Shown here piece after piece: positions 1,286 to 44,014 of a DNA stretch of 64,000 nucleotides. This DNA is from Alphaproteobacteria bacterium. GTDB lineage: Bacteria > Pseudomonadota > Alphaproteobacteria > SHNJ01. The notes beneath the pieces are model-generated. The model did no database searches. It was not told where the DNA came from and saw only the letters and a program-made list of their open reading frames with translations. The DNA lies in contig SHNJ01000031.1 in the NCBI GenBank assembly GCA_004295055.1, positions 72,802 through 136,801 on the forward strand, read 5' to 3'. Numbering within the stretch: position 1 is the stretch's first letter; the number at the start of each line of letters is the position of its first letter. A program made the translations under genes and the position numbers.

Positions 1286-1309
1286 AGCCAACGGACTAAT
1301 GGCTTTATA

Positions 1310-2281: not shown

Positions 2282-2383
2282 AAAAACGGCAGTTTTTGTT
2301 AATATATTGTTAACGGTATTAGGAGCATTCTATAATCAGGGCAATAACTTAAATTATAATTATTCCCCTACCAGAGATAGTAT

Positions 2384-3556: not shown

Positions 3557-3564
3557 GAGGGTAT

Positions 3565-4119
3565 ATGAAAAAAGTAATATTGTGTTTAGCAATAGGAATA
3601 ATGACGGCATCCACCGCAAATGCGGAAAATGCGCGTCCGGTATGGAATACCGATTATTCCAATAATCAACCGCAAAGTTCGGATAAAGTGTACGTTGCCC
3701 CCGCGCCGATGGCGCCGGCGCCAACGCCTTATACGGTTCAGCATATTCCGCCAAACCAAGTTCGCAATTTTGCTCCGCGAGTTCAAGGCAGCGCCGATGC
3801 GGCCTGGGCAAGGCAATGGGGACCGATTCAGGAAATGACCGGCATCAATAGCGGTCAGGCCAAGCAATTCATTACTGGCGTCAAACAAGGATATGTCGAA
3901 GGCACCGCCAAAACCCTTAGCAGCGCGCAAGACTGGGCCTTGATCCTCGGTCAAAGCGGCCTGGTTGGAACGGTTACCGATTCTACGACTGACTGGTTTC
4001 ATTATGTTACATCGGATTTGCCAGGCGCTATTTATAAATATGATAATGGGGTAAACAACAATCTGATGGGCGGTTTATCCGGATTCGGCAATTATCCTGG
4101 CATGAAGATAGGGGAATAG
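3565..4119 (+). CDS. Secreted hypothetical protein with signal peptide
   Basis: Strong RBS (AGGAGGG) 7 nt upstream. N-terminal MKKVILCLAIGIMTASTANA signal peptide with A-x-A site. No recognisable domain. Confidence 0.6.
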   Translation: MKKVILCLAIGIMTASTANAENARPVWNTDYSNNQPQSSDKVYVAPAPMAPAPTPYTVQHIPPNQVRNFAPRVQGSADAAWARQWGPIQEMTGINSGQAKQFITGVKQGYVEGTAKTLSSAQDWALILGQSGLVGTVTDSTTDWFHYVTSDLPGAIYKYDNGVNNNLMGGLSGFGNYPGMKIGE

Positions 4120-4170
4120 CGTACACTTACCCTCGAGCTGTTTCGACCTATATTATATCTCGAGGTTTCC

Positions 4171-5352
4171 ATGTCAAAAAATATCTATATCGCCGGTGCG
4201 GCGCGTACCCCGATGGGTGGATTTCAAGGTGAATTATCATCGCTGACGGCACCGCAACTGGGCAGTTATGCTATCAAGGCGGCATTGGAACGTTCGGGCA
4301 TAAAATCAGATTCCATCAATGAAGTTCTTATGGGTTGCGTCTTGCCGGCAGGTTTAGGCCAGGCCCCCGCACGGCAAGCATCCATAGGTGCTGGGATTCC
4401 AATCGGTGTTGGATGCACGACAGTGAACAAAGTCTGTGGTTCGGGATTGAAATCGGTGATGCTGGGTTATGATTCGATTTTGGCGGGACATAACGAAGCG
4501 GTGATCGCAGGCGGCATGGAAAGCATGAGTAACGCGCCATATTTGTTGGAAAAAGCGCGCGGTGGATATCGCCTTGGCCATGGAAAAATTGCCGACAGCA
4601 TGTTTTTGGATGGGCTTGAAGATGCCTATGACCGCGGCCGTTTGATGGGCACATTCGCCGAGGATACGGCGCAGCATTATCAATTTACCCGCGCTCAACA
4701 GGATGAATTCGCGCTGCGATCATTAGACCGCGCGCGCAAAGCAGGTATGGACGGCAGTTTTTCCCGTGAGATTGTTTCGATTGTCATGGACAATAAGAAA
4801 GAAAAAATAACCATCAGTTCAGACGAACAGCCACGTAACGCTAAACCGGAAAAAATTCCGACATTGAAACCGGCTTTCCGCGATGGCGGCACGGTAACGG
4901 CGGCCAATTCCAGTTCCATTTCCGATGGGGCTGCCGCGGTAATTGTTTGCAGCGAAGCGCAAATGCAAAAGTCCGGAGCAAAGCCATTGGCGCGGATTGT
5001 CGCCCATGCGACGCATGCGCAAGAACCAGCCTGGTTTACAACCGCGCCGGTATTTGCCATTAAAAAAGTCGCCGAAAAAGCCGGGTGGAATTTAAAAGAC
5101 GTGGATTTGTTTGAAATTAACGAGGCGTTTGCCGTCGTTACCATGGCCGCGCAACATGAATTGAATTTACCTAATGAAAAGGTCAATATTCGTGGCGGCG
5201 CTTGCGCAATGGGCCATCCGATCGGCGCTTCCGGCGCGCGCGTGTTGGTGACACTAATTCATGCGTTGCAAGATATGAAATTGAAACGTGGTATTGCCAG
5301 CCTGTGCATTGGCGGCGGTGAAGCCGTCGCGATGGCCATAGAAACTATTTAG
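4171..5352 (+). CDS. atoB: Acetyl-CoA C-acetyltransferase (thiolase II)
   Basis: 393 aa with thiolase motifs (VNKVCGSGLKSV active-site Cys; C-terminal NIRGGACAMGHPIGASGARVL…CIGGGEAVAMAIE). Confidence 0.85.
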   Translation: MSKNIYIAGAARTPMGGFQGELSSLTAPQLGSYAIKAALERSGIKSDSINEVLMGCVLPAGLGQAPARQASIGAGIPIGVGCTTVNKVCGSGLKSVMLGYDSILAGHNEAVIAGGMESMSNAPYLLEKARGGYRLGHGKIADSMFLDGLEDAYDRGRLMGTFAEDTAQHYQFTRAQQDEFALRSLDRARKAGMDGSFSREIVSIVMDNKKEKITISSDEQPRNAKPEKIPTLKPAFRDGGTVTAANSSSISDGAAAVIVCSEAQMQKSGAKPLARIVAHATHAQEPAWFTTAPVFAIKKVAEKAGWNLKDVDLFEINEAFAVVTMAAQHELNLPNEKVNIRGGACAMGHPIGASGARVLVTLIHALQDMKLKRGIASLCIGGGEAVAMAIETI

Positions 5353-7148
5353 TCTGCCGGGTGTCCTATTTCAGACGCATTTTCAGTGCAATCTGTCTGT
5401 GGTCCGTTTTTCTGCGCAGTTTCGCATACAATTGTACCATCTGCTGGTGCTGATACTACGTCTTGTCCAGCCGGCAATCCAACAGGAGTGTATGTAGTTG
5501 GTCCTGGATCAACAGAAACTATAGTTTTTGCCGCTGGATCCCAATTGTAAGCCCAATTGGCATGATAATTGGCTAGACCGTGCACGCCAGTGTGTAATAA
5601 TTCAGGATATGTCTGGCTGCAATCTGCAGAATTATTAAGCAAAGTTACAGCCGCATCCGTTTTGCAGTTGGCTGAACTGCGTTCCGGATAAGTGTAAGTA
5701 CGGTCCCGCGCTTGCTGCGAGTTCGATGATAAATAGCAGTAAAATTGATTGGTATTTGGGGAATAGCCTACCACTTGGTGGGCTAACGGTCCGTCACCGT
5801 TGGCCAGAGAGCATGACTCTTCCCATCTGCCATAGGTAGTATCGTTCGCATTCACGCCTTCACAGACGAAAGTGTTGCTGGTCGCGGTTGTTGCGTCCCA
5901 AACAATCTTTTTACCTTCAGGGCATGGCGTTGGGCCGTTTGATGGATTTGGCGGTCTGGAATTTAACAATGTCCACCCACCGGCGCAAATTAGACTGCCA
6001 TCCCGCAATATGATCACGCCTTTACTGCGCGTACCGGGAAAATATGGATGATTATCATAATAACGTTGTGGGCATTCAAAATTGGCTAAACGAGTCATAA
6101 TATCATTCGGTAAAGCCGGATTTGGCCAGGTGCCGTCGGCCGCTACCGGAGAGACCGCATCGTAATATTCATCTACCGCGTACATCGATACGATTTGCCG
6201 GTTTACGTTGTCATAGGTCTCTGTGTTGACTTTTGCTTCGCGAATTTCGATGTCGGCACAGCTCATCCCGTTATTGATAGTTCCATCATTATTGGTGCCG
6301 CGCGAATTCAGGGCGGTTCCAACGGTACAATTTTGAGTTTCATTGCTGCCTGGCGCGGCGGCCAATCCCAGAACATTTCTTTCGCAACGGAACCGGGCTG
6401 GCAAAGTTTCCGCGGTATTGCCATCGCCGTCCTCATCGTTGACATCCACAGCTTGAGGTTTGAATATCATTTCTTCGCCGGCAGGACAGGCGCTTTCGCT
6501 AAGCGTGGTATTTTCCGTTTGCGAACTGCGGATCCATTTCAATGCCTGTGCCGGCGTTACATTGATGTATTTGCTGTTATCGCTTGTTACGCCAGCAGCG
6601 GCAGCGCTGCAAGTCATCATATGATCAGGATATTTGTTTAGAATAAGGGTAAATAATATCGGCGGATTGGCGGGTGCTGGAATATACCCATTTGTGCTGC
6701 TATAGCCGGCTTCTACCGGATAATATGGACAATAACGCATATATCTACGCAAGCTATCTGGCCGCAGTGGGGCCATTTGACGCAAGTTTCTCGGCAATTT
6801 ACCGCCATAAGCATAGGTAGGATTATTGCCTTCCAAAAGAGGAGTGGTAATAGTCGCATCGGAAGTAGTATCGCTGTTATCAGGAAATACGGCTGCAATT
6901 GGATGCACTCTCCCGGTGCTGCGGATATTGTCGCTGGAGGCCCGCGCAATGCTAGAAGCCAATACATTCAACAATGTGTCGTCGGTTATTTTCTCAGCAG
7001 ATTGGCGATTATCTTTTAATGCATTAATGTTCGGCGTAAAGATAGCAGCATTGGCCAGCATGATTAGAACGATAAAAAGCAATAAATGCGATACCATCCC
7101 GCGCTGGCGATTTTGAATGTTATGATATGGTTTCATTCTAAATCTCAT
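5349..7148 (-). CDS. Large cysteine-rich secreted or membrane-anchored protein with prepilin-like leader (no Glu+5)
   Basis: 599 aa. N-terminus is a basic leader ending in QRG|M followed by about 20 hydrophobic residues. About 25 Cys and many N-x-T/S. Third gene of a tightly packed three-gene minus-strand array. Confidence 0.55.
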   Translation of the reverse strand: MRFRMKPYHNIQNRQRGMVSHLLLFIVLIMLANAAIFTPNINALKDNRQSAEKITDDTLLNVLASSIARASSDNIRSTGRVHPIAAVFPDNSDTTSDATITTPLLEGNNPTYAYGGKLPRNLRQMAPLRPDSLRRYMRYCPYYPVEAGYSSTNGYIPAPANPPILFTLILNKYPDHMMTCSAAAAGVTSDNSKYINVTPAQALKWIRSSQTENTTLSESACPAGEEMIFKPQAVDVNDEDGDGNTAETLPARFRCERNVLGLAAAPGSNETQNCTVGTALNSRGTNNDGTINNGMSCADIEIREAKVNTETYDNVNRQIVSMYAVDEYYDAVSPVAADGTWPNPALPNDIMTRLANFECPQRYYDNHPYFPGTRSKGVIILRDGSLICAGGWTLLNSRPPNPSNGPTPCPEGKKIVWDATTATSNTFVCEGVNANDTTYGRWEESCSLANGDGPLAHQVVGYSPNTNQFYCYLSSNSQQARDRTYTYPERSSANCKTDAAVTLLNNSADCSQTYPELLHTGVHGLANYHANWAYNWDPAAKTIVSVDPGPTTYTPVGLPAGQDVVSAPADGTIVCETAQKNGPQTDCTENASEIGHPAD

Positions 7149-7152
7149 TCAT

Positions 7153-8694
7153 TTAATCCACTGCTGTGCATGTAAACCGCGGATTCGGATTTGCATCTTT
7201 TATGAAAGTTAACGAACCTCTTTTGCCGTTAATCGGCGGACATGTATTCGCCGGCATGGCAAAACGAAGCGCTTCAAATATATTGATGCATTGTACCAAT
7301 CTGCGATCGTCCACCCGGGCTTGCATGACATTGTTCACGGGGCATCCGTCACTTGTGCTGTAATGCACGGCGGCATCTTCTGCAAACCCGCCGGCCAGCA
7401 CTGGGTCGTTTAAAATGTAACAGCCAAATCCGCCCATGCTGGAAACAAAGCCGACGTCGAATCCCGCTTTGCATACTCTTAATCCGCCAGCTTGCGCATC
7501 TTCCGGACAGAATGTGCGGCCACTGGCGTAGTATGGCGTAATTCCACCGTTGCAAGCTGTGCGCGCTCCGGGGCCGCCATTTCTTGCCAGGTTGGTATTA
7601 TTGAATGGATAACAAGAAGTATAGCGCGATAGCGCCACTGCGAGCCAATTTCCAGCAGAGCAGGTGCTTAGAACCACATTTTCCGGTATGCCGTTGCATA
7701 TCCTTTGTGTTCCCGTCCAGCGGAATGTTTCGATATGATTGGTGCAAGGAGCGGCAGCGGCCATATCGCCGTCAATTAAAGAGGCAATAGCGCCATTTTC
7801 GTCGAAAATCAATCCAAAGTCGGAACGGGCGCGTGGCGCCACGGTAGAAACGCAGGCCAGTTCTTGATACTCATGTTCTGCATCGCCCTCATGCACCAAT
7901 CGCAATGTCAAGGCGGTGCCTTGTGGGCAAGTAGGTATATTTTCCGCGGCGCTGTCGGATTTCAGGAAAAATGCTGGAATAGTGCTTTCCACGCATTCCC
8001 AATTTTTCTGATCGATATTCCATTGTAAATTTGTAAGTTTACGATCTCTGCCCGTTCCTGTAATTCCGCATGTTGGAATGTTCCCGGCGTTTTCGATAAG
8101 ATTTTTGTAAGCATCCCTGTTAACGTCTCTAACGGTTTTAAAAATACCGATATCGTCGCCTCGGGTAATGCCTTGCATAACATCGTTCTTATTGGTGTCT
8201 ATTTGTCCGTCCGCACCGGGAAGAATCATGGCAAAAGACATTTCGTCCGGATTTGGAATGCCGCCTGCGCCAGACAAGTAATAACCGGCCGGAGCATTAT
8301 CCGTGCTTCGCGGCATATGGATGAAAGCGAAATAAGCAACTTCGCCGAATTTGGTGTTGGCGGAGAATCCAGTCGGCAGTTTGCCACCCCACTCTGGATT
8401 TGGCACATCTCCGTCCTGCATCGATCTGCCGCCGGCAGTCGCCGACATCGCCGGCGCCACTTTCATGACGCCTTGTTGATCCAGATTTGATTCCGCAATA
8501 ATACTGGCCAGTTGTTGTAACTTGTTCCGGGCTTGCACGTTTCTTTGCTGATCGATTAGCTTGTCAAAAATGCCGACATAGCTTCCCGCTAATGTAATGG
8601 CGGCCGCGCTGGCCAGCATGCCGAACAGGACCGGCGCGGCTAAGAAGCCTCTCTGGCTGTTTTTTCTGCGAAATATGGTAAACAGTTTCATCAT
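7153..8694 (-). CDS. Large cysteine-rich secreted or membrane-anchored protein with prepilin-like leader; paralog-like of its two neighbours
   Basis: 513 aa. Leader MMKLFTIFRRKNSQRG|FLAAPVLFGMLASAAAITLAG. Cys/Gly/Asn-rich. 4-nt gap to the downstream gene. Confidence 0.55.
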   Translation of the reverse strand: MMKLFTIFRRKNSQRGFLAAPVLFGMLASAAAITLAGSYVGIFDKLIDQQRNVQARNKLQQLASIIAESNLDQQGVMKVAPAMSATAGGRSMQDGDVPNPEWGGKLPTGFSANTKFGEVAYFAFIHMPRSTDNAPAGYYLSGAGGIPNPDEMSFAMILPGADGQIDTNKNDVMQGITRGDDIGIFKTVRDVNRDAYKNLIENAGNIPTCGITGTGRDRKLTNLQWNIDQKNWECVESTIPAFFLKSDSAAENIPTCPQGTALTLRLVHEGDAEHEYQELACVSTVAPRARSDFGLIFDENGAIASLIDGDMAAAAPCTNHIETFRWTGTQRICNGIPENVVLSTCSAGNWLAVALSRYTSCYPFNNTNLARNGGPGARTACNGGITPYYASGRTFCPEDAQAGGLRVCKAGFDVGFVSSMGGFGCYILNDPVLAGGFAEDAAVHYSTSDGCPVNNVMQARVDDRRLVQCINIFEALRFAMPANTCPPINGKRGSLTFIKDANPNPRFTCTAVD

Positions 8695-8705
8695 GTTCTT
8701 TTCAT

Positions 8706-10238
8706 TTACCTATATATACATTTAAATTTCTTGTTGGTTTCATCCCAACTGACCATTTGGTGTCCGTTGCAAGAACTGCTGGGCGTAACTCTTGTCAATA
8801 ATTCAAACCTATCCAGGCATACATAATTGGTGCCGTCGTGCATGATAAAATCACCCGCTCTGCAAGATGTACGGGTATCGCTATATGGAATGATCCAATT
8901 GCGCGGTTCTTGAGTGTTATTGCTTTCCAAACATTGCGTATTGTTAGTAACCGTCTGGAATTCCAATATTTGATTTGGCTGGCAGGTTTGCTTGACCTCG
9001 AAACTTAAGTTCCCGGCAAAACAGAATAATTTTCCGCGATCGAATACGATGTATGGCCGTCCGGAACAATTGCTGCCGCTTAATAAGCTGCTTGGCATGC
9101 CGAGGCAACGCAAGGTGCCATCGCGGCTTTGGTACAAGGCTTTGAATTGTCCGCCGGATGCTTGGAAATCGCAGCTGCTTGCCAACAGCGGAATGGATAA
9201 GCTTACGCTTGGCGGACCAATTTCATCGCCATACGAAGAAAGACGATCACACCGGAAACTGTAATTGTCGTTGGCCACGCTCGATAACGCGCCAATGGCG
9301 TACCCGCGATAACAGATGCCGGCGGCCAAACGGCCCATATTGATATTCTCCGGCACTTGATTGGCCAATTGATCGACAACCCGGCAACCTAAAGTGCCAT
9401 CGGCATTCAAAGCCAGGCGTTGTGAATCCAAACAGCGGCGTAAACCATGCGAAGAATAATCCTGATTCACAAAATTCATGTAATTGTCGCGGCAGTTCCA
9501 GCTATGCTCTCCGGTGGCATTGCCATCGCCATCCTGCACATTGGTGTATTCCAAAGTTTGCAAGGCCGTACAGGTCGGAACGCCGTTATGCAACAAAGCG
9601 CGGCGATTGGCATTGGCGTGTTCCAACACTTCGCCGTATTTGATAAGTCTAATTTGGTCGTCGCTGCCGTTCACGGGGGTTTCATTCAAAGCATAATTGC
9701 AGGTATACTCAGGCGTACCGTTTTGTCCGTAACTGATAATTGCAAATACAGATTGTTTCATAAGCAGCGTTGTATTAGCTTGAACCTCGCGCCGTCCATT
9801 AGCAACATATGGTGGTACTATATCTTGAAGATTGATAGAACAAATTCGGAAGTCTCTACCGTAAGCATCCTTTCCGATGGTATCTCGCAAATCTACTTCT
9901 TGATTGTTAATAGTTGTCAATAGAGGTTCTATAAAACCCATAGCAGATTGTTCCCACTGCTGCGTATCACCTTCTGGATTAGGTTGAGTTTTGGTGTAAT
10001 ACATGCGCGGCAATTCAAGATAACGATCCCCATCAATATTGCTAATCTTGTTAGCAAGAATATATTCCGCTAATCGGTCTATGTTCTTTTTGGTATTTAA
10101 ATCGCTTTGTGTGGTGCCTACTTTCTGCGCAAGGCCAGCGGTCAGCGTGATCAGCGTGCCCAGCATCGCGACCGACGCGACAAGAGTGGCGATATATGCC
10201 CCGCCAATAAAGCCAGATTGTGATTTAAAAATTTGCAC
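8706..10238 (-). CDS. Large cysteine-rich secreted or membrane-anchored protein with prepilin-like leader; first gene of the array
   Basis: 510 aa. Leader MQIFKSQSG|FIGGAYIATLVASVAMLGTLITL. AT-rich promoter-like region upstream (10239-10518). Confidence 0.55.
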   Translation of the reverse strand: MQIFKSQSGFIGGAYIATLVASVAMLGTLITLTAGLAQKVGTTQSDLNTKKNIDRLAEYILANKISNIDGDRYLELPRMYYTKTQPNPEGDTQQWEQSAMGFIEPLLTTINNQEVDLRDTIGKDAYGRDFRICSINLQDIVPPYVANGRREVQANTTLLMKQSVFAIISYGQNGTPEYTCNYALNETPVNGSDDQIRLIKYGEVLEHANANRRALLHNGVPTCTALQTLEYTNVQDGDGNATGEHSWNCRDNYMNFVNQDYSSHGLRRCLDSQRLALNADGTLGCRVVDQLANQVPENINMGRLAAGICYRGYAIGALSSVANDNYSFRCDRLSSYGDEIGPPSVSLSIPLLASSCDFQASGGQFKALYQSRDGTLRCLGMPSSLLSGSNCSGRPYIVFDRGKLFCFAGNLSFEVKQTCQPNQILEFQTVTNNTQCLESNNTQEPRNWIIPYSDTRTSCRAGDFIMHDGTNYVCLDRFELLTRVTPSSSCNGHQMVSWDETNKKFKCIYR

Positions 10239-10518
10239 CGTTTACAACCCTCGCTCATCCCAAAAAATTAAAGTGGGTTGAACAAAACCTTTTTCCCCAT
10301 CCTCTTATTGTTACTCAGTATGGTTAAGCGGCAGTAAACATCGGATAAAAATATTAGTAATTAAATTACAATATATTGATTTAATGTTATTATTTATTGT
10401 AATTGTAGTACTAAGGTATGAAAAAGCATATCTTGTCTGTTTTTTGGCCAAAAGCGGACTTGTGTTTAAAAGCCGTTTTGGCTAAACATATATCTATAGA
10501 ATTCTAAGGGAGAGAGAA

Positions 10519-11139
10519 ATGGCGCAAGCAAATTTTGGATTAACCGCTGTTGCAGCTATGGGCGCGGTAACGGCTTTTGGTATTGTGCCAGCCAACGCGG
10601 ATATTTGGCTGCATCAGGGTACCAATAACACTAGTTTTGCCACATCGGAAATGATGACAGGAAATGTTACTGGTGTTCAAGTAAATATATCGGGGGACAA
10701 TTTGTGGGCATTTACGGCTCGTGCAACAAGTCAGTATATTACTGTTACCTCTGGTTTTTCAAACCAACCAGGTATGTTTGCAGGGTTTGACATGTTTAGT
10801 AATCCATTACCAGTAGGTTCTGGTTATAATGACGTGGATCAAACAGGCATAAATATGACTATGAATATTGGTGCTCAGAATGTTGGTCAACTAATTACCC
10901 TAGTTTTTGCTAATTATGGTATGGTTCCACTCAGCAATGGATCGGATTTGTATGACGTTGGAAGCTCTGGACAAATTAATCCATTGTTTATGGGTGCATG
11001 GAATGGCACAGGGGGTCAGAATCAATTTGGCGTCGAAACTCGCGTATACGAAATTACTGGCATTACCGGTGTTCCAGCTCCGGGTGTGTTGACCTTGGCT
11101 ATGGCTGGCGGTTTATTGGCCGCGCGTCGCCGCCGCTAA
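10519..11139 (+). CDS. Secreted protein with PEP-CTERM-like C-terminal sorting tail
   Basis: RBS GGGAGAGAGAAATG. Signal peptide …GIVPANA|D. C-terminus GVPAPGVLTLAMAGGLLAARRRR is a P-x-P, hydrophobic helix, Arg-cluster arrangement. Paralog of 11365-11985. Confidence 0.65.
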   Translation: MAQANFGLTAVAAMGAVTAFGIVPANADIWLHQGTNNTSFATSEMMTGNVTGVQVNISGDNLWAFTARATSQYITVTSGFSNQPGMFAGFDMFSNPLPVGSGYNDVDQTGINMTMNIGAQNVGQLITLVFANYGMVPLSNGSDLYDVGSSGQINPLFMGAWNGTGGQNQFGVETRVYEITGITGVPAPGVLTLAMAGGLLAARRRR

Positions 11140-11164
11140 TCGATAAAGATCAAATTTTGATTCA

Positions 11165-11195
11165 AAAGGCCTGGGTGAAACCCAGGCCTTTTTAT
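11165..11195 (+). terminator. Rho-independent terminator
   Basis: GGCCTGGG-TGAAA-CCCAGGCC hairpin followed by TTTTTAT. Confidence 0.7.
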
Positions 11196-11364
11196 ATGTG
11201 CGCACGAATAATTAATACTATCGTATGATTATAATATAATTATACTAATATGAAATAAAATTAGCAATATAATTGCAAGGATGGCTAAGAATCATTTTGC
11301 CAACCAAATGGTAAGTGGATTATAAATGCTTACTTCAAAAACTACTTTTTTCGTGGAGAGAAAA

Positions 11365-11985
11365 ATGGTCCGAGCAAATTTTGGAATGATTGCCGCCTTT
11401 ACCGCGGCCACCGCTTTCGGCACACAAGCGAATGCAGATATTTGGGAACAACATGGCAGCGACAACACCGCTTTTGCGACATCGGAAAGAATGACCGGCC
11501 GCGAAATTGACGGAATTGAGTACAGTGTTACTGGCGATAATTTATTTGCCTTTACTGGCGTTGCAAATAGTCGATTTATTACCATTATTTCCCCTGCATC
11601 TAACCAGCCTGGTATTGTGTATGTCCTGGACAAAGATGGAAAACCATTTCCAGTAGGTTCAGGTTATAATGACATTACACAAGAGGGCGTCGATATGATT
11701 ATCGATATTGGCGATGCCAATGTCGGTAAAGAAATCACTTTCGTATTTGGTAATTACGGCACGTTGGCGCAAAATGGCGAAACTCCGCTTTTTAATGATT
11801 ACGAATGCGGCCAAATCGATCCAGATGTGGTTGCGACATGGACTCTGACTGGTGGTCAAAATCAATTTGGTTCCGAAACTCGTGTTTGTTTCTTCGGCGA
11901 GGGAGAAGTTCGCGGTGTGCCAAAAGTAAGCACCACGACGGCGACGGCAGCAGCAAGAGCCAGAGCCACGCGCTGTTGCGACTAA
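11365..11985 (+). CDS. Secreted paralog of 10519-11139 with degenerate (Thr/Ala-rich) C-terminal tail
   Basis: Start moved to MVRANFG… (RBS GGAGAGAAAAATG, matching its paralog). Shared blocks are ANFG…TAFG…ANADIW, PVGSGYND and TGGQNQFG.ETRV. C-terminus is VPKVSTTTATAAARARATRCCD. Confidence 0.6.
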   Translation: MVRANFGMIAAFTAATAFGTQANADIWEQHGSDNTAFATSERMTGREIDGIEYSVTGDNLFAFTGVANSRFITIISPASNQPGIVYVLDKDGKPFPVGSGYNDITQEGVDMIIDIGDANVGKEITFVFGNYGTLAQNGETPLFNDYECGQIDPDVVATWTLTGGQNQFGSETRVCFFGEGEVRGVPKVSTTTATAAARARATRCCD

Positions 11986-12000
11986 CAATTAGATAGAATA

Positions 12001-12034
12001 AAAAAAGCCCGGTTTAATCCGGGCTTTTTTATTG
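12001..12034. terminator. Bidirectional rho-independent terminator
   Basis: AAAAAAA-GCCCGG-TTTAAT-CCGGGC-TTTTTTATT. It lies between two convergent genes (11365-11985 on + and 12048-12428 on -). Confidence 0.75.
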
Positions 12035-12047
12035 GGAGTATTTAACC

Positions 12048-12428
12048 TTAGCTTTCATAATTATCATTCGCGAACATGGCGGCGACGCCCGCACCGAAAT
12101 GATTTTCGATGCGGTAATATTGAATTTCCCGGTCGTTAAAATAATTTTGTTTTTTTAGCAAATTTTGCAGCAACGATTGCTTGCGGCGGTATTCGCGGTA
12201 CGCCTTGGCGATCAGGCGCGGGATCGCCTCGGAAATATCGACGATGTTTTTCGCGCCGAATCCCGCAACCGGCATTTCCGCTTGCCACATTCTGTAATGC
12301 CGCAAAGTTTGCAACATCCAATACCGCAGCAATTGAATCTCAGCGCGCATGGCGCAAATCAGCATTTTTGTCTGGCGCGGATTGGCGGGTACAAAATAAA
12401 AACCCGGCCCGGCGAATTCTTGGTTCAT
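12048..12428 (-). CDS. Small protein of unknown function; paralog A of 14172-14540
   Basis: 126 aa with RBS AGGGAGAGC. The C-terminal 43 aa and about 150 nt are near-identical to 14172-14540 (…[47 protein letters not shown]). Transcribed divergently from an XRE regulator. Confidence 0.6.
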   Translation of the reverse strand: MNQEFAGPGFYFVPANPRQTKMLICAMRAEIQLLRYWMLQTLRHYRMWQAEMPVAGFGAKNIVDISEAIPRLIAKAYREYRRKQSLLQNLLKKQNYFNDREIQYYRIENHFGAGVAAMFANDNYES

Positions 12429-12606
12429 AAAAAGCTCTCCCTAAATATTAATTTTTGTTGGTTACGAGGGGTAAAATAGGCCTAAATGGTTAATGAATGG
12501 TTAATTTATAGATAGAAATCATAAAAAATATTACTAATATTCATTTTTTTTATGATTTATCTTGATAATGGGATTCAGGCCTTCTAAAACAAAGCAGGGT
12601 AAGACT
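12429..12606. promoter_or_regulatory. Divergent AT-rich promoter region with GGTTAAT direct repeats (candidate operator)
   Basis: TGGTTAATGAATGGTTAAT at 12487-12505 lies between divergent genes. An analogous GGTTAAT…GTTAAT is in the paralogous region 14754-14772. Confidence 0.35.
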
Positions 12607-13251
12607 ATGACTTTGGATGCTTCTCAAATCCGCGCCGCACGCGCCTTGTTGGACTGGACAATCGAAGATTTGGCCAAAATTACCGGCTTGAGCAAGGATT
12701 CCATCAAAAATGTAGAGCGTGGGCATACTCAACCCCGTATAAATACCCGAATTGTTATAGAAGAAGCTTTTGAAAAAGCAGGCATCGAATTTTTGCCGGG
12801 TTCTGGCGTGCGCAAGAAAAATAATTTAATAACGACCTTAACCGGCGAATACGCCAATCGGCAATTGCTGGATGATGTGTATGCAACCCTTGTGGCTCGG
12901 GAAAATGCGTGTGTCTATATTACCGGCGTCAAGGAAACACAAAGCATCGATAGTGTGGATTATGAATATTTGGAAAAACATATTCAACGCTTATTGAAAG
13001 CGAATATTAAAGAAAAATTGATTGTTGAAGAAGGCGATTCCACTTTTATAGCGCCTTCATACAGCTATCGGTGGATAGCAGAACAATATTTTGAGAATGT
13101 ACCCATCCAAGTTTATGGCGATAAAATCGCCTTTGTGGATTGGGGGCCGCCGGAGCAAATCGTTATCATTCAAAACAAAGGATTTGCCATGGCTATGCAG
13201 AAACTGCTGGATTTCGCATGGCAAAACTGCGCCGTGCCTAAAGGCTTGTAA
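12607..13251 (+). CDS. XRE-family helix-turn-helix transcriptional regulator with uncharacterised C-terminal domain
   Basis: Start set to MTLDASQIRAARALLDWTIEDLAKITGLSKDSIKNVERG (HTH). Same length as, and colinear with, paralog 14937-15584 (conserved EEGD…YRW…VY.DK.A). Confidence 0.6.
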   Translation: MTLDASQIRAARALLDWTIEDLAKITGLSKDSIKNVERGHTQPRINTRIVIEEAFEKAGIEFLPGSGVRKKNNLITTLTGEYANRQLLDDVYATLVARENACVYITGVKETQSIDSVDYEYLEKHIQRLLKANIKEKLIVEEGDSTFIAPSYSYRWIAEQYFENVPIQVYGDKIAFVDWGPPEQIVIIQNKGFAMAMQKLLDFAWQNCAVPKGL

Positions 13252-13252
13252 A

Positions 13253-14119
13253 ATGATGCATATATCCGGAAAGCTAAAGCAAATCGTATCCTTAGGGCCA
13301 GAAAATTTCGACTTTCTGAAAGCGGCCAATAACAACGACAGTTATCAATTGTCGCCTACATATTATTTGTTTACCGGAAGAAAAGGTTTATGGGTGTTGG
13401 AACAGGATGGGCAAGCGGCTTTAATTGCTAAGCATCCTAACTTAGAAGACGAATTGTTGGTATTTTATCCTAATGGATATTGCCCAAATCTAGAGCATCA
13501 AGTTTTACATCATGTTCCGCGTAACAGCCGATTAAAAGCTGCAAGACTAGCCGTTTGCGCAAATTCTAATCTCAATGCAGTTATGGATGAGGAACTATTC
13601 TTAGATTGGCGTTACCCAGTCTGCATACTGGATACTGCGTATGTTGGAAAACTGCGCGGCAGGTTATTAGAGGATGTAAAGAACAATTATAATAGAGCCG
13701 CTAGAACGATTTGTAGAATTGAGGCTTACAATCCGGCTGCGCATAAAGATCGCATGAGAGAATTGATTCAACAATGGCATCGCCCGGAAGCGCATGATGG
13801 ATATGAAGGGCTATTAAATATTATGGAACGAATGCCGGGAAATTTCGGCTTAATCGCTCTAACAGAAGAATCTATCGCGGGGTTTATTCACTGGGAAATG
13901 CCATGGAAACCGGGGAGTCCGGCTAATTCTCTGGCCTTGATTGTTGACAAAAGCATTAAAGGATTAAGCGAATTTATGATGGTGGAAATGTGCCGCGCGT
14001 TGGTGCAGACCGGATGCCTTGCTGTCAATATAGGTGGGTCTGAAACCGAAAGCCTTCATTATTTTAAAAGCAAATTTAATCCAAAAATGGTGGATCTGCG
14101 TAATTATAATTATGCTTAA
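13253..14119 (+). CDS. Stand-alone DUF2156 / phosphatidylglycerol-lysyltransferase C-terminal-like (FemXAB/GNAT-fold) protein; putative aminoacyl-tRNA-dependent transferase
   Basis: Start re-set to the ATG 1 nt after the regulator stop (MMHISGKLKQ…); the track's 13091 start overlaps the regulator. C-terminal signature …GSETESLHYFKSKFNPKMVDL matches the FK.KF.P motif that ends MprF C-domains. Confidence 0.5.
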   Translation: MMHISGKLKQIVSLGPENFDFLKAANNNDSYQLSPTYYLFTGRKGLWVLEQDGQAALIAKHPNLEDELLVFYPNGYCPNLEHQVLHHVPRNSRLKAARLAVCANSNLNAVMDEELFLDWRYPVCILDTAYVGKLRGRLLEDVKNNYNRAARTICRIEAYNPAAHKDRMRELIQQWHRPEAHDGYEGLLNIMERMPGNFGLIALTEESIAGFIHWEMPWKPGSPANSLALIVDKSIKGLSEFMMVEMCRALVQTGCLAVNIGGSETESLHYFKSKFNPKMVDLRNYNYA

Positions 14120-14171
14120 AGATTAATACTTTTTAAGTAGTACAATGCGCGGCGAGGCAGCTAATATGGCG

Positions 14172-14540
14172 TTAGGCATAATTATCGTTCGCGAACATGG
14201 CGGCGACGCCCGCGCCGAAATGATTTTCGATGCGGTAATATTGAATTTCCCGGTCGTTAAAATAATTTTGTTTTTTTAGCAAATTCTGCAACAACGATTG
14301 CTTGCGGCGGTATTCGCGCAACGATTGGTTGATCAATCCCTGCACTTTGCTTTGCATATTGGCGATTTTTTTTGCCGGCAATGCGCCGTCATTGTTCATT
14401 TCCGCGCGCCAGGATTTATAATTCTGCAAAGTTTGCAGCATCCAATAACGTAGCAAGCGGATTTCCGCTTCCATCGCCTCGGCTAAATTTTGACTTTTGC
14501 CTTTGGTGTTGGCATTGGTTTTATTTTGTTGTGCTGGCAT
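14172..14540 (-). CDS. Small protein of unknown function; paralog B of 12048-12428
   Basis: 122 aa with RBS AAGGGAG. C-terminus identical to paralog A. Preceded on the same strand by a 47-aa ORF. Confidence 0.6.
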   Translation of the reverse strand: MPAQQNKTNANTKGKSQNLAEAMEAEIRLLRYWMLQTLQNYKSWRAEMNNDGALPAKKIANMQSKVQGLINQSLREYRRKQSLLQNLLKKQNYFNDREIQYYRIENHFGAGVAAMFANDNYA

Positions 14541-14560
14541 ATCTCGCTCCCTTAACTCCG

Positions 14561-14704
14561 TTAGGCCGCTTTTTGTACTTTGCGCATTTCTTCAACTACG
14601 TTCAGCGCAAAATAGGGGCCATATTTAATTTCCAAATACTCATAAATTTCTTCTTCGCTCATCATCGCGTAATTTGGTTTGGTATTTTGATTCGCGTAAT
14701 CCAT
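14561..14704 (-). CDS. Small ORF (47 aa) not in the supplied track: MDYANQNTKPNYAMMSEEEIYEYLEIKYGPYFALNVVEEMRKVQKAA
   Basis: Read by hand on the minus strand. ATG at 14704, stop TAA at 14561-14563. It ends 20 nt before the RBS and ATG of 14172-14540, an operon-like spacing. Acidic/aromatic, no signal peptide. Confidence 0.35.
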   Translation of the reverse strand: MDYANQNTKPNYAMMSEEEIYEYLEIKYGPYFALNVVEEMRKVQKAA

Positions 14705-14710
14705 CTCTAG

Positions 14711-14936
14711 TCCCTTAGTTCCCGTTGTTGGCAACGAGAGAATAGGATCATAAGGTTAATCAAAAGTTAATTCAATAGAAAAAATATCTAATAACGATAT
14801 ATTTTATGCCTTTTATAGATGGTATTATACACAAATTATTGATATATAATGATAATATTCCATCCAGAAAAATAAAAAATGACGATATTTTTTATATGTT
14901 CTTGCAATATGTTTTATATCTTGTTATGCAGAAAAC
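14711..14936. promoter_or_regulatory. Divergent AT-rich promoter region with GGTTAAT-N6-GTTAAT repeat (candidate operator)
   Basis: GGTTAATCAAAAGTTAATT at 14754-14772. Same position relative to the regulator gene as in cassette 1. Confidence 0.35.
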
Positions 14937-15584
14937 ATGATAGACGCCAAACAAATACGCGCCGCGCGCGCTTTGCTGAATTGGTCGCGGGAGGAGCTGG
15001 CCGAACAAACGGGGATTTCCGTCCCCGCGCTTGCTCGCGCCGAAACGGGCGAATCGCAATTGCGCACGACTAGCGCCGAGAAAATCAAATCATCGTTGGA
15101 GCAGGCGGGTGTAATTTTTACGGATGGCAGTGGTGTGAAGCTCAAAACGGATTTGGTACAAATTTATGAAGGTGAAAATTGCTATCTAAAATTGCTGGAA
15201 GATTTTGAAGACCTGAATGTTAAAGGAGAAAAAGAAATTCTGTTCAGTTCTGCTTCTGAAAAAAGATCAACGGATGAGGTTATTGAGAAAACGCGTCTTC
15301 TAAGAAAAAAAGGCATTAAGATGCGCTTTCTTTTGGAGGAAGGCGACACATACATAATGGGTGACCTTTCAGAATATAGATGGATGCATAAAAGTTTATT
15401 TTCCAAGGGTGACGTAAAGCTAGTGTATGCGGATAAAGTCGCTTATTTGGTTAGTTGGATGGAAACACCTCGTGTTGTAGTTGTTTCTGAGAAAAACATT
15501 GCTGAAGAAAATCGAAGAGCGTTTGAATTTATTTGGAATATATCGAAGAAACCGACGCACAGCGATGCGGACATTTCATATTGA
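14937..15584 (+). CDS. XRE-family HTH transcriptional regulator; paralog of 12607-13251
   Basis: MIDAKQIRAARALLNWSREELAEQTGISVPALARAETG HTH. C-terminal domain colinear with its paralog. Confidence 0.6.
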   Translation: MIDAKQIRAARALLNWSREELAEQTGISVPALARAETGESQLRTTSAEKIKSSLEQAGVIFTDGSGVKLKTDLVQIYEGENCYLKLLEDFEDLNVKGEKEILFSSASEKRSTDEVIEKTRLLRKKGIKMRFLLEEGDTYIMGDLSEYRWMHKSLFSKGDVKLVYADKVAYLVSWMETPRVVVVSEKNIAEENRRAFEFIWNISKKPTHSDADISY

Positions 15585-15592
15585 GGCGCAGA

Positions 15593-16309
15593 ATGTTCGA
15601 AATCAAAATTAAAACGTCAAAAAATCAAATCGCCTTATATAATCGCTGTGTATTGGGCGTAAGTCTAGATAGCAATAATCACAGAGGTGATCGTCTGGCG
15701 GCATTGGTAGAATGGGCTAATGATAATTTTAAAGATTGCATCGTCGATCTTACCGATACTTTGCATCGGTATAATCACATGGCGGATCTAAAATTGTCGG
15801 AAAACGATGCCAGATTGAAAGCCCATATTCAGGGCGATCAGTGGCTGCAAGAATCATATCACATATTATCCAATTTCAAGATTCCATATTGCATTCTGCG
15901 GTGGGATGCATGGAAATATAATCATAAGTTTATAAGGTATCTGCATATGTTTGAAAGCGCATTCGCGGTCGATAAAAATTTCCGTGAAGCTGTTATGTAT
16001 GATGTTAATTTATTTTTAGGCAGAAGAAAAGCTCTTGGCAGTCCAACCACGGAGCAATTATGCGTTACCTATTTATTGGAAGAACTTGCTGGTCAATCCT
16101 TATTGTATGAACAATTTCCAGCTGCTGAGATTTATCCGGGTAAACAACAAAAAAGCTTTGGATTAGTGCGTGCTGGGAAAGTGCCTAATGTGCCAACTGG
16201 TTTGCAGAATTCCTGTTTTGTAAGCCTGTATCTGCATGACAAGAGTGCGGGGTTATTTGGTTCCGCCAATGACGATGCAGATTTTGCTGATTTAAGAAAA
16301 ATGGGTTGA
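15593..16309 (+). CDS. Cyclodipeptide synthase (CDPS)-like tRNA-dependent enzyme
   Basis: Start set to the ATG 9 nt after the regulator stop (MFEIKIKT…, 238 aa). Motifs colinear with AlbC-type CDPS are: LGVSLDSNN (the G-x-S catalytic-Ser loop); LVEWANDNF…IVDLTDT (compare LLQWAGQRF…VVYVDT); TYLLEE (the Y…E pair); and SLYLHD (the late Tyr). Confidence 0.65.
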   Translation: MFEIKIKTSKNQIALYNRCVLGVSLDSNNHRGDRLAALVEWANDNFKDCIVDLTDTLHRYNHMADLKLSENDARLKAHIQGDQWLQESYHILSNFKIPYCILRWDAWKYNHKFIRYLHMFESAFAVDKNFREAVMYDVNLFLGRRKALGSPTTEQLCVTYLLEELAGQSLLYEQFPAAEIYPGKQQKSFGLVRAGKVPNVPTGLQNSCFVSLYLHDKSAGLFGSANDDADFADLRKMG

Positions 16310-16464
16310 TACTTCTGAAACCTTGATTTCAAAGCCTGAACACACTCCTATCCATATATTTCTCCACATATTGCCCCGCACTCTAAATCTCCTTGGAATC
16401 CGGCTTATTTTAAGGCATCTTAAGGGCCGCTTTCCTATATCCAGCCCTTATCCCGATTACCCGC

Positions 16465-18072
16465 ATGAAAACCTTATCCAGCCAGATCAATACAAAATCC
16501 GAAGATTTCAAAACCAACGCCGCGCATATGCAATCGCAGATTGACGATATGAACGAAAAACTGGCGCGGATTCAGCTGGGCGGATCCGAAGACGCGCGCA
16601 AAAAACATACTGCGCGCGGCAAATTACTCACGCGTGACCGGATCAATCATTTGCTCGATCCCGGCTCGGCATTTTTAGAATTCAGCGCCTTTGCCGGATA
16701 TAATATGTACGAAGATGATGTGCCCGCCGCCAGTATCATTACCGGCATTGGCCGCGTCAATGGCCAGGAATCGGTCGTCATCGCCAACGATCCGACGGTT
16801 AAGGGCGGAACCTATTACCCGATGACGGTGAAAAAACATTTGCGGGCGCAAGACATCGCCGCGCAAAACAACTTGCCTTGCATTTATCTGGTCGATTCGG
16901 GCGGCGCGTTTTTGCCGATGCAGGATGACGTGTTTCCAGACCGCGATCATTTCGGCCGTATTTTTTATAACCAGGCGCGCATGTCTTCCCGACGTATTCC
17001 GCAAATAGCGGTGGTGATGGGTTCTTGCACCGCAGGCGGCGCCTATGTTCCCGCCATGTCGGACGAAGTGGTGATTGTTAAAAACCAAGGGACTATTTTC
17101 CTGGGCGGCCCGCCACTGGTCAAGGCCGCGACGGGCGAGGTTGTTACGGCGGAGGATCTGGGCGGCGCGGACGTGCATTGCCGCACGTCGGGCGTTGCCG
17201 ATCATATGGCGGATCATGATCGTCATGCGCTGGAAATCACCCGCAATATTGTTGGCAATCTAAACCGTTCGCCGCAAACCAAATTAAATCGTATCTCGCC
17301 GGAATTGCCGAAATACGATCCGGCGGAATTGGTTGGCATTATTCCCAAAGACACGCGCAAGCCGTTCGATATCCGCGAAATCATTGCGCGTATCGTCGAT
17401 GGCAGCCGGTTCGATGAATTCAAGGCGCTGTATGGCACGACCATCGTTTGCGGATTTTCCTATATCATGGGTATGCCGGTCGGTATTATCGCCAACAACG
17501 GCATTCTGTTTTCCGAAGCCGCGTTAAAGGCGACGCATTTTATTGAATTATGCAGTCAGCGCGGAATTCCATTGGTGTTCCTGCAAAATATCACCGGATT
17601 CATGGTTGGCCGCAAATATGAAAATGACGGCATCGCCAAAGATGGCGCGAAAATGGTGACCGCAGTGTCTTGCGCCAATGTGCCGAAATTTACCGTGCTG
17701 ATTGGCGGATCGTTCGGCGCTGGCAATTATGGAATGTGCGGGCGGGCCTTTAACCCGAATTTATTATGGATGTGGCCGAATTCGCGGATTTCCGTTATGG
17801 GCGGCGAACAAGCGGCGAATGTGTTATGGCAGATCCGCGCGGACAGGGCAGAGGCCGAAGGCAAAAAACCAACCGCCGCCGAAGCCGAGCAATTCAAATC
17901 GCCAATCCGCCAGCAATATGAAAATCAAGGCCATCCTTATTATGCTTCCGCGCGTTTGTGGGACGACGGTATTTTATCGCCAACCGACACGCGCATGGCG
18001 TTGTCGATGGGAATTTCAGCCTCGCTGAACGCTCAGTGGGACGATACACGATTCGGCGTATTTAGAATGTAG
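16465..18072 (+). CDS. mccB: Methylcrotonyl-CoA carboxylase carboxyltransferase (beta) subunit
   Basis: 535 aa acyl-CoA carboxyltransferase fold (two crotonase-like halves). Adjacent to liuC, mccA and hmgL. Confidence 0.8.
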
Positions 18073-18081
18073 GAGATTGCG

Positions 18082-18876: not shown

Positions 18877-18886
18877 TATTTAAATC

Positions 18887-21046: not shown

Positions 21047-21183
21047 CTATACCCTACTGTTTCCTTATAGAATACTATCGGTCGATTGGTCAAGCCTGAA
21101 TATAATTCCCTTTTTTCACCGGTTTTTTGTGGGAGTTGGAAAGGGATGGCGGTATGATTCCACTTTCAATTTGGTGAATTATC

Positions 21184-28421: not shown

Positions 28422-28508
28422 AAACTCATACATAATCATTGGTTTAGTTAACTTGACGGTATAGCATTATACCATTAAGATACGATCCTATCTTTATAGG
28501 ATCCATTA

Positions 28509-30836: not shown

Positions 30837-30847
30837 CGCATCACCTA

Positions 30848-43934: not shown

Positions 43935-44014
43935 GTCCCATAAATTTCATATAAATTTAGGTTGCGTTTTTTTATTGCTCATGATAATCCCTTAGGGAAA
44001 TATAAGGGACGAAG

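Follow-up and report, generated by a model that had tools for sequence, protein, structure and literature searches.

A probably old interruption of the leucine-breakdown cluster in a little-sampled alphaproteobacterial lineage, and a likely recombination-driven array of sensor–enzyme cassettes within it

When the genes of one catabolic cluster are separated by a block of ORFans and secreted proteins, is that block a recently acquired mobile island or an old property of the lineage that carries it? The question is raised by a 64-kb stretch of alphaproteobacterial DNA (contig SHNJ01000031.1 of assembly GCA_004295055.1, positions 72,802 to 136,801; hereafter the window), in which the leucine-breakdown (liu) cluster is split between the thiolase gene and mccB by about 11 kb (5349-16330), a block described in the initial annotation as an accessory island. 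By comparing the locus with its relatives, and by examining its composition, protein families and repeats, we conclude that the block is very likely an old, vertically inherited interruption of the liu cluster, typical of a little-sampled alphaproteobacterial lineage, rather than a recent mobile island. Its mccB-proximal part is likely a recombination-driven array of sensor-plus-enzyme modules mounted on a constant chassis of helix-turn-helix (HTH) domain, operator and small protein.

The window is housekeeping chromosome (with genes for malic enzyme/PTA, DnaE, ribosomal protein S2, EF-Ts, BipA, ProRS and LolCD), with a GC content of 0.479 and a median GC at third codon positions (GC3) of 0.52. 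The genes ivd, mccB, liuC, mccA and hmgL are all present and co-oriented, as judged from Pfam matches and from synteny with 80 comparison loci (designated by L numbers below). To the left of the block, on the plus strand, lie ivd (2384-3556), encoding an isovaleryl-CoA dehydrogenase-type acyl-CoA dehydrogenase (Pfam Acyl-CoA_dh N/M/C, also listed as Acyl-CoA_dh_N/M/1; 94% identity in L082 and syntenic in L092), and the gene for thiolase, an acetyl-CoA acetyltransferase (4171-5352; Pfam Thiolase_N/C). To the right, on the same strand, follow mccB for the carboxyltransferase subunit of methylcrotonyl-CoA carboxylase (16465-18072; Pfam Carboxyl_trans, 521 bits), liuC for a methylglutaconyl-CoA hydratase-type enoyl-CoA hydratase (18082-18876; Pfam ECH_1), mccA (21184-23139; Pfam biotin carboxylase and biotinyl domains) and hmgL (23139-24014; Pfam HMGL-like). 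The flanks and the split of about 11 kb given in the initial annotation thus check out in domain assignment and in coordinates, and so does its 4-nt overlap between thiolase and the first gene of the block: the thiolase TAG (5350-5352) overlaps the stop of the convergent gene i599, the two open reading frame (ORF) ranges having 4 nt in common. Within the gap are three minus-strand ORFs, two secreted paralogues and two paralogous three-gene cassettes. The surface or secreted proteins had been recognized correctly; the cassettes, described as regulatory, each carry an enzyme gene as well.

In Legionellales and other Gammaproteobacteria (L028, L030, L039, L067 and L045) ivd, thiolase, mccB, liuC, mccA and hmgL are contiguous, and the arrangement in the window is therefore an interruption of a widespread cluster. 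Like liuRABCDE of Pseudomonas, the window contains the full catalytic set in the usual order and orientation; unlike it, the cluster is cut twice, by the conserved 11-kb block and by a lineage-variable gene between liuC and mccA, and within the window a MerR-type LiuR gene is not apparent, the XRE proteins of the cassettes being the cluster's only regulators.

A scan of species-representative genomes for MccB identified two near relatives, L009 (96% identity) and L001 (91%), all others being at 74% or below. Four relatives, with MccB identities of 96, 91, about 80 and 79%, share the order of the block: thiolase, three Cys-rich ORFans, one or more PEP-CTERM-like proteins, one or more cassettes, and mccB. 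The relative at 79%, a 134.7-kb metagenome contig (L092), matches the architecture of the window gene for gene. On its left side ivd, orf182 and thiolase are followed by three minus-strand genes (encoding 785, 576 and 634 aa, 22-30% identical to the window proteins i599, i513 and i510) and a PEP-CTERM-like protein of 239 aa; on its right side a small-protein gene (minus), an HTH gene (plus) and a Methyltransf_33 gene (plus) precede mccB, liuC, a gene of the IVP family, mccA and hmgL and, further on, saccharopine dehydrogenase and AhpC/NHL genes. On L082, a contig from the same metagenome-assembled genome (MAG) as L001, malic enzyme, MprF_TM, ivd, orf181 and thiolase genes are followed by convergent genes for 574, 520 and 517 aa, and L083 reads thiolase end, i580, i524, i513 and two PEP-CTERM-like genes. 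In L082 plus L001, in L083 and in L009 the order agrees with the window up to the contig ends, and in L086, L085 and L091 a cassette likewise lies upstream of mccB. An empty thiolase–mccB junction was found in no relative of the lineage. The initial annotation had itself named conserved gene order among relatives as the observation that would speak against an acquired island, and conserved order is what the relatives display.

Composition divides the block in two. The left half (5349-10238) has a GC content of 0.480, the same as the window, and a core-like GC3 of 0.44-0.51; the right half (10239-16464), with a GC content of 0.413, is the compositionally odd part, GC3 being 0.35-0.43 in the PEP-CTERM-like, regulator and enzyme genes and 0.55-0.60 in the two small-protein genes. 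Lower GC begins at the AT-rich divergent spacer between i510 and pep206 (10239-10518, GC 0.318), and a second spacer (14711-14936) falls to 0.252; both had been picked out as AT-rich. The compositional profile that the initial annotation proposed as a check is thus non-uniform, in keeping with the island reading for the right half and at odds with it for the left. Signs of mobility are missing, as had also been noted: tRNA/tmRNA and Rfam scans of the whole window returned no match, no integrase, transposase or insertion sequence domain was found in any ORF of the block (Pfam, NCBIfam), and a search over 4800-21400 for direct or inverted repeats at the boundaries revealed internal paralogue repeats only. 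Nothing in plasmid records matched the small protein s126, regulator B or i719, and nothing in phage records matched s126; these searches thus offer no sign of descent from a mobile element.

That the whole of 5349-16330 is a horizontally acquired accessory island, recently inserted between thiolase and mccB, can draw on the contiguous ivd-thl-mccB of other Proteobacteria, on the lower GC and GC3 of the right half, and on the ORFan nature of most block genes, which have very few homologues. It is contradicted by the same order in every available relative, down to 79% MccB identity, and it sits badly with the core-like left half, with the absence of integrase, tRNA, insertion sequences and flanking repeats, and with the empty plasmid and phage searches; we consider it very improbable. 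The block resembles classical genomic islands in interrupting an operon, in its many ORFans and surface or secreted proteins and in its partly lower GC, but differs in having no integrase, tRNA or repeats, in occupying the same site in all relatives, and in that variation is limited to the internal cassettes and to two separate genes, i719 and o775. What stands of the accessory island is accordingly the interruption; accessory and recently acquired do not describe it.

The variable part of the block is built from cassettes of one plan, in which a gene for a small protein of about 120 aa is divergent from an operon of XRE regulator and enzyme, with an AT-rich spacer between them. Cassette A consists of s126, encoding a small helical protein (12048-12428, minus; GC3 0.60), the gene for regulator A (12607-13251, plus; Pfam HTH_3; its ORF is extendable to a TTG at 12562), and, starting 1 nt past the latter, a gene for a DUF2156/LPG_synthase_C-like protein (13253-14119, plus; Pfam PF09924; GC3 0.41). 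Cassette B consists of s122, again encoding a small helical protein (14172-14540, minus), the gene for regulator B (14937-15584, plus; Pfam HTH_3), and, starting 8 nt past it, a gene for a tRNA-dependent cyclodipeptide synthase, or CDPS (15593-16309, plus; NCBIfam TIGR04539 and Pfam CDPS; GC3 0.37). Each regulator combines an XRE HTH domain with a C-terminal sensor-like domain, of DUF2156 type in regulator A and of CDPS type in regulator B. Upstream of s122 there is in addition an unannotated micro-ORF of 47 aa (14561-14704, minus; …EEIYEYLEIKYGPYFALNVVEEMRK…, …MSEEEIYEYLEIKYGPYFALNVVEEMRK…), which is conserved as a protein, with in-frame length variation, in L009 and L001 and is confined to B-type cassettes.

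The enzymes of the two cassettes belong to unrelated families. The product of 15593-16309 reaches 62.2 bits against TIGR04539 (cut-off 45) and 36 bits against Pfam PF16715 (cut-off 27); it matches a solved structure, 5ocd, at E=3.5e-17, and its GVS, YLLEE and IYP motifs are in register with 5ocd and 5mlq (phmmer). In this family they correspond to the catalytic serine, the Tyr…Glu pair and the XYP-type Tyr-Pro motif. By family cut-off and aligned motifs the protein is classed as a cyclodipeptide synthase, its activity being predicted. The product of 13253-14119 reaches 40 bits against PF09924 (cut-off 27.5) over profile positions 14-248 of 298, and is 46% identical to the L085 enzyme; it has no sequence match in the PDB. 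DUF2156/LPG_synthase_C is an aminoacyl-tRNA-dependent transferase fold family. Beside ivd, 11 kb from this free-standing LPG_synthase_C-like enzyme, the window also has a TM-only MprF-like gene (LPG_synthase_TM; 1310-2281, minus). A functional link between these two would-be halves of an MprF-type aminoacyl-lipid synthase is doubtful, because the MprF_TM-like gene is kept in relatives whose cassettes carry no DUF2156-like gene.

The small protein belongs to a rare family, with 14 homologues among 5.8e9 proteins and nine representative clusters among 1.84e9 in an exhaustive profile search, and with so few clusters it has no distant annotated relative. Its invariant motifs RYW, EYRRKQ and NH[FY]G are located in two long helices, and its AlphaFold2 (AF2) model is a helical hairpin with a predicted local distance difference test (pLDDT) score of 75. 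A Foldseek search against the PDB gave nothing below E=1, DksA-like and ESCRT-like resemblances being among the non-significant ones.

The regulators carry the most telling pattern of the locus. Both match PF01381 (HTH_3) with 34 bits, against a cut-off of 23, and in the PDB controller protein 4yba is matched at E=1.4e-11; the family has at least 627 full-length homologues, several of them named as alphaproteobacterial. The AF2 model of regulator B, built on a deep alignment (pLDDT 93), consists of the XRE HTH followed by an α/β domain, which Foldseek places near TrmBL2 (5bpd, E=2.8e-7), the sugar-binding domain of TrmB (2f5t, E=7e-5) and Nuc (1byr, E=4e-6). The C-terminal domain is thus predicted, from the model, to be a TrmB-like ligand-binding domain of PLD-like fold; beyond the HTH it has no Pfam match, and a PDB profile search matches the HTH part only. 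Likeness to the TrmB family is accordingly confined to the predicted fold near the effector-binding domain of TrmB/TrmBL2: the cassette regulators have an XRE HTH where TrmB has a winged helix, there is no sequence-level match to TrmB, and their ligands are presumably amino-acid derivatives, not sugars.

The two regulator domains have followed different histories. Compared with those regulators of L009 and L001 that precede methyltransferases, regulator B has an identity of 89-90% over the HTH and of 19-21% over the C-terminal domain (89 and 19% for L009c4), and the L085 and L086 regulators, preceding a DUF2156-like and a methyltransferase gene respectively, are 87% identical in the HTH and 14% in the C-terminal domain. 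By contrast, the C-terminal domain of regulator A is 58% identical to that of the regulator in L085, where a DUF2156-like gene again follows, and 15-31% identical to those of regulators paired with other enzymes; L009c1 and L084, both before a CDPS gene, share 63%. Among 13 regulators, C-terminal identity averages 45% in same-enzyme pairs and 22% in different-enzyme pairs (permutation p=1e-4), whereas HTH identity is 55 and 50% respectively, a difference that is not significant. Within enzyme classes, sensor identity correlates with enzyme identity (r=0.76, the pairs not being independent), and between orthologous cassettes of the window and L009 DNA similarity ends at the domain junction, at window positions 15173 and 12812. 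The regulators are therefore mosaics, in which the HTH tracks the locus (spacer and small gene) and the C-terminal domain tracks the enzyme.

A shared operator-like element lies in the divergent spacers. The direct repeat GTTAAT-N5-GTTAAT occurs exactly twice in the window, once per cassette spacer, at 12489-12505 in cassette A (GTTAATgaatgGTTAAT) and at 14755-14771 in cassette B (GTTAATcaaaaGTTAAT), where a promoter-like minus-strand site overlaps it. With one mismatch at most it is present in every cassette spacer of L009, L001 and L084, against a background of one match in 1.5 Mb of unrelated loci. The clade of L085, L086 and L092 has another HTH and another conserved spacer motif, and the cassette spacer of L092 contains a (GTTAGTC)n tandem repeat (9850-9900). 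A one-mismatch copy of the GTTAAT element (GTTAAT-N5-GTTAAC, GTTAATatattGTTAAC) is found in the window at 2298-2314, in the spacer between the MprF_TM-like gene and ivd, and the orthologous site of L082 (9091-9107) is conserved. Through this copy the liu genes, for which the window has no LiuR gene, could be connected to the cassette regulators, or the copy could be due to chance, 0.57 matches being expected per window.

Cassettes also vary in number and content among relatives, there being one in L092, two in the window and at least three in L009. The L009 cassettes carry a CDPS and two different EgtD-like Methyltransf_33 enzymes, with a PEP-CTERM-like gene and a fragment of a small gene in between; L001 has a single cassette, which includes two methyltransferase genes, and in addition a DUF2156-like gene on its own. 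The enzyme is of the Methyltransf_33 family in L092 and L086 and DUF2156-like in L085 (Methyltransf_33 assignments in relatives range from E=1e-37 to 1e-50), and L084 has, in another chromosomal context, a cassette with a divergent CDPS. L087 has two regulator-plus-enzyme pairs (Methyltransf_23 and DUF2156-like), and in L089 a regulator 50% identical to regulator B is followed by a broken CDPS gene.

Repeats at and within the cassettes bear the marks of recombination. The 3' ends of s126 and s122 share a 159-nt repeat of 93% identity (12056-12214 and 14177-14335), and an independent assembly of the same genome (L081, Logan SRR8466248), identical to the window over 1-12123, stops at this very repeat, which implies that such arrays are systematically broken or collapsed in short-read MAGs. 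In L001 a near-identical direct repeat of about 150 nt (4258-4405 and 5571-5715), comprising the mccB promoter and first 25 codons or so, brackets an extra EgtD-like gene, and is the scar of a cassette gain by recombination at the mccB boundary. Together the two repeats point, at the level of sequence, to recombination as a means of cassette gain and homogenization. Between cassette enzyme and mccB there are pairs of ParE-toxin and HTH-antitoxin genes in L085 (456-1081) and L086 (2909-3546), a further sign of an insertion hotspot upstream of mccB. Between ivd and thiolase, L082 has a tandem duplication of a 3' ivd fragment plus orf181 (6162-7837), which suggests that this interval is likewise recombination-prone.

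We hypothesize that the block has a stable left part, comprising three fast-evolving, Cys-rich and N-terminally anchored ORFans followed by one or two secreted PEP-CTERM-like proteins, and a plastic right part, directly upstream of mccB, comprising tandem three-gene cassettes. The cassette enzymes would act on amino acids or aminoacyl-tRNAs (the DUF2156-like transferase and CDPS in the window, EgtD-like N-methyltransferases in relatives) and yield a small amino-acid-derived molecule; this molecule or its precursor would be bound by the matched C-terminal domain of the regulator, which in turn, acting through the GTTAAT repeats, would regulate the divergent gene for the small protein and probably also the operon in which the regulator itself is encoded. 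Units of sensor plus enzyme would be exchanged, duplicated and lost by recombination, anchored by the conserved segment of small gene, spacer and HTH on one side and by the 5' region of mccB on the other. As an overall account of the locus, a lineage-fixed insert with a recombination-driven array of matched sensor/enzyme modules is the reading that we favour, with moderate confidence. Its regulatory core, namely that the C-terminal domain binds the product of the enzyme (possibly the substrate) and that the regulator controls the divergent small-protein gene via the GTTAAT repeats, we infer more tentatively, at somewhat short of an even chance.

Several points weigh against this account. The contiguous clusters taken as ancestral belong to another class, so that the direction of insertion is a parsimonious reading and not a proven one; the relatives are few, all of them MAG or metagenome contigs; L009 and L001 break in or beside the array, and L082 and L001, which come from one MAG, are assumed to be adjacent. 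Instead of a foreign origin, the low GC of the right half could reflect a relaxed or AT-biased mode of evolution in its regulatory and secreted genes. Pairing of regulator and enzyme is frequent but not obligatory: about half of the sampled regulator homologues have no adjacent enzyme gene, and where neighbours in metagenomic loci were taken by a start-window method, about 14 of the 34 regulator loci with downstream room had an enzyme gene in the same direction, no more than 150 nt from the regulator stop (DUF2156-like, CDPS, Methyltransf_33, GNAT and two of unassigned family) and the remainder had none. The small protein, which has no recognizable fold relative, occurs at only two of the sampled metagenomic regulator loci and is missing from most, and its link to the module may be lineage-specific. 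Ligand, product, direction of regulation and the role of the small protein are all matters of deduction, and with a regulator that senses the substrate, not the product, one would expect sensor and enzyme to co-vary just as much.

Substrate sensing leads to a different function for the same genes. The cassettes would then be substrate-inducible metabolic or detoxification operons, whose regulator senses a nutrient or a toxic amine, amino acid or peptide; no signal would be made by the cell itself, and the small protein would be no more than a neighbouring regulated gene. The TrmB-like fold fits such operons as well as the co-variation does, since TrmB controls the transport and metabolism of the very sugars that it senses, and some regulator homologues precede genes for GNAT acetyltransferases, a typical class of modifying and detoxifying enzymes. 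Cyclodipeptide synthases use aminoacyl-tRNAs, however, and with substrates that are ever-present there is nothing external to sense; moreover, arrayed paralogous cassettes, each with its own small protein and operator, look more like parallel signalling channels than catabolism. We regard operons of this kind as rather unlikely. With comparable reserve we put forward a bolder possibility, that the cassettes are undescribed orthogonal channels of cell-cell signalling in Alphaproteobacteria, each with a synthase whose product, derived from amino acids, would be the signal (cyclodipeptide, aminoacylated compound or amino-acid betaine), with a cognate receptor of XRE and TrmB-like fold and with a dedicated small helical effector; new channels would arise by swapping of sensor plus synthase onto an unchanging chassis of HTH, operator and effector, and the position in the liu cluster and the site at ivd would tie them to the control of branched-chain amino-acid catabolism.

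The small protein could instead be the precursor or scaffold of a ribosomally synthesized and post-translationally modified peptide (RiPP), its C-terminus being modified by the adjacent tRNA-dependent transferase or methyltransferase under an HTH protein that regulates the pathway. The tail that follows NHFGAG (Gly-Ala-Gly) is indeed highly conserved among close paralogues, DUF2156/Fem-like enzymes and CDPS both use aminoacyl-tRNA, and in L001 the DUF2156-like gene lies downstream of a small gene on the same strand. Yet the tail past NH[FY]G is unconserved in distant members, in which conservation resides in the RYW and EYRRKQ motifs of the long helices; one type of small protein is found with enzymes of three unrelated classes; the small gene lies on the strand opposite the enzyme gene and differs from it in GC3; and Pfam and NCBIfam scans revealed no protease, transporter or other RiPP machinery nearby, so that a RiPP-like system is highly improbable. 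No more credible is a selfish or defensive role, as toxin-antitoxin or anti-phage modules with the XRE protein as antitoxin or controller, which would explain both the variability and the clustering of the cassettes. The XRE HTH resembles controller proteins and antitoxins of the HipB and MqsA type, the ParE/HTH pairs of L085 and L086 adjoin cassettes, and a variable array at a fixed hotspot is typical of defence islands, but PADLOC matches the generic HTH only, with none for the small protein or the enzymes, the enzymes come from biosynthetic and not toxin families, and the second domain of the regulator, as modelled, is of ligand-binding type and not in the short format of an antitoxin.

The favoured array of matched sensor/enzyme modules resembles several known systems without coinciding with any of them. 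As in synthase-receptor pairs of the LuxI/LuxR type, an enzyme gene adjoins that of a two-domain regulator whose specificity domain co-varies with the enzyme, and there are multiple paralogous pairs per genome; the families are nevertheless unrelated (XRE with a TrmB/PLD-like fold in place of LuxR, and CDPS, DUF2156-like or EgtD-like enzymes in place of LuxI), and release and sensing of a signal are only putative here. In temperate phages a transcription factor (TF), in some cases an XRE protein together with a quorum-sensing receptor, activates a divergent small-protein gene (Silpe et al. 2023, PMC10432266). These TF-smORF (small open reading frame) modules share with the cassettes a regulator operon and a counter-oriented small gene across a common spacer; the cassettes differ in being chromosomal, amid housekeeping genes and with no phage context, in having a conserved small protein of 120 aa and a regulator operon that carries its own enzyme, and in all their protein families. 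The window CDPS passes the family cut-offs and conserves the catalytic motifs, as in known CDPS gene clusters, but no tailoring enzyme (P450, cyclodipeptide oxidase or methyltransferase) is adjacent to it in the window; it is instead closely coupled in translation to its own XRE regulator, and in sister cassettes unrelated enzymes occupy the same position. Signalling roles of CDPS have only been speculated upon in a survey of the family (PMC5767969), and in our searches of the literature we came across no account of a pairing between XRE regulators and CDPS, DUF2156-like or EgtD-like genes. The design of the cassettes may be an undescribed kind of chemical signalling module.

The stable left part of the block begins with three minus-strand ORFans, i599 (5349-7148; 16 Cys; GC3 0.44), i513 (7153-8694; 16 Cys; GC3 0.51) and i510 (8706-10238; 18 Cys), none of which has a Pfam or NCBIfam match (nor, for i599, a PADLOC match). 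Orthologues beside thiolase are 49, 65 and 22% identical to i599 in L082, L083 and L092 respectively; for i513 the syntenic orthologues are at 54, 67 and 30%, and for i510 at 48, 62 and 25% (the last over 553 aa). Only three homologues of i513 were found among 5.8 billion proteins, and their contigs keep the order of the window. The N-termini of the three read QRG-M followed by a hydrophobic segment (i599), QRG-F (i513) and QSG-F (i510), and their mutual similarity is weak and N-terminal only (E=0.015), which, on the sequences, suggests a common architecture rather than demonstrable paralogy. Type IV pilins or pseudopilins were considered in view of the G-F/M and hydrophobic stretch and rejected, the residue at +5 being P, L or A and not Glu and pilin families giving no match. 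Upstream of the ORFans, between ivd and thiolase, orf184 (3565-4119, plus) encodes a conserved uncharacterized protein with an apparent signal peptide and no Pfam match, whose orthologues hold the same position in L082 (58%) and L092 (40%).

Across the AT-rich spacer lies pep206 (10519-11139, plus; GC3 0.35). The secreted protein that it encodes starts with a signal peptide (…ANA|D) and ends in a PEP-CTERM-like tail (VPAPG…hydrophobic…RRRR; C-terminus VPAPGVLTLAMAGGLLAARRRR). It has orthologues in L083, L001, L009 and L092, with tails in relatives that read TPAPG…RRRR or PTPS…RARRAR; the NCBIfam PEP-CTERM model does not match pep206 at E<=0.01. Its paralogue pep219/206b (11365-11985, plus), 47% identical to it, ends in …RCCD in place of the PEP-CTERM-like tail. 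A frameshift as the cause is ruled out, since the tail (…AARA.A..RCCD) is conserved in the orthologue of L083 (62-688), and this conservation points less to decay than to a C-terminal signal of its own kind, for sorting or lipidation. Between pep219 and s126 stands a strong, bidirectional terminator-like hairpin (12001-12030), with a 12-bp stem flanked by A and T runs.

The clearest truly accessory DNA of the window lies outside the block, in i719 and o775. The ORFan i719 (18887-21046, minus; inserted stretch 18877-21183), between liuC and mccA, has no Pfam, NCBIfam or PADLOC match; as the initial annotation surmised, it is a real single-gene interruption, missing in both close relatives, L009 and L001, in which a gap of 2 nt separates liuC from mccA. 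At the same junction L092 has a different gene, of the 23S_rRNA_IVP family (14211-14582). Between the EamA transporter and BipA genes, o775 (28509-30836, plus; inserted stretch 28423-30861) encodes an ORFan of 775 aa with no Pfam match and the lowest GC3 of the window (0.32), which looks like an effector-type protein; it is missing in L009, where the two neighbouring genes are 12 nt apart. Elsewhere in the window (42432-45544) are two adjacent Lysine_decarbox (LOG-like) genes, encoding 500 and 509 aa, the second a weak match with a GC3 of 0.39.

An operon split by lower-GC ORFans is not by itself a sign of a mobile island: here synteny in a handful of metagenomic relatives reversed the island reading, and the DNA that truly varies is i719, o775 and the interiors of the cassettes. 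The island claim is an ordinary one, and most of its evolutionary interpretation does not hold; what is unusual is the cassette system, whose small-protein component is rare. The array amounts to a natural module-exchange experiment, in which the same HTH, operator and small protein are combined with different pairs of sensor and enzyme, and with parts so small and self-contained the idea lends itself to direct testing. Should the sensor bind the product of its enzyme, this would provide a function for free-standing CDPS, DUF2156-like and EgtD-like genes in Alphaproteobacteria, a new family of receptors for cyclodipeptides and amino-acid betaines, and ready-made orthogonal sensor/synthase pairs for synthetic biology.

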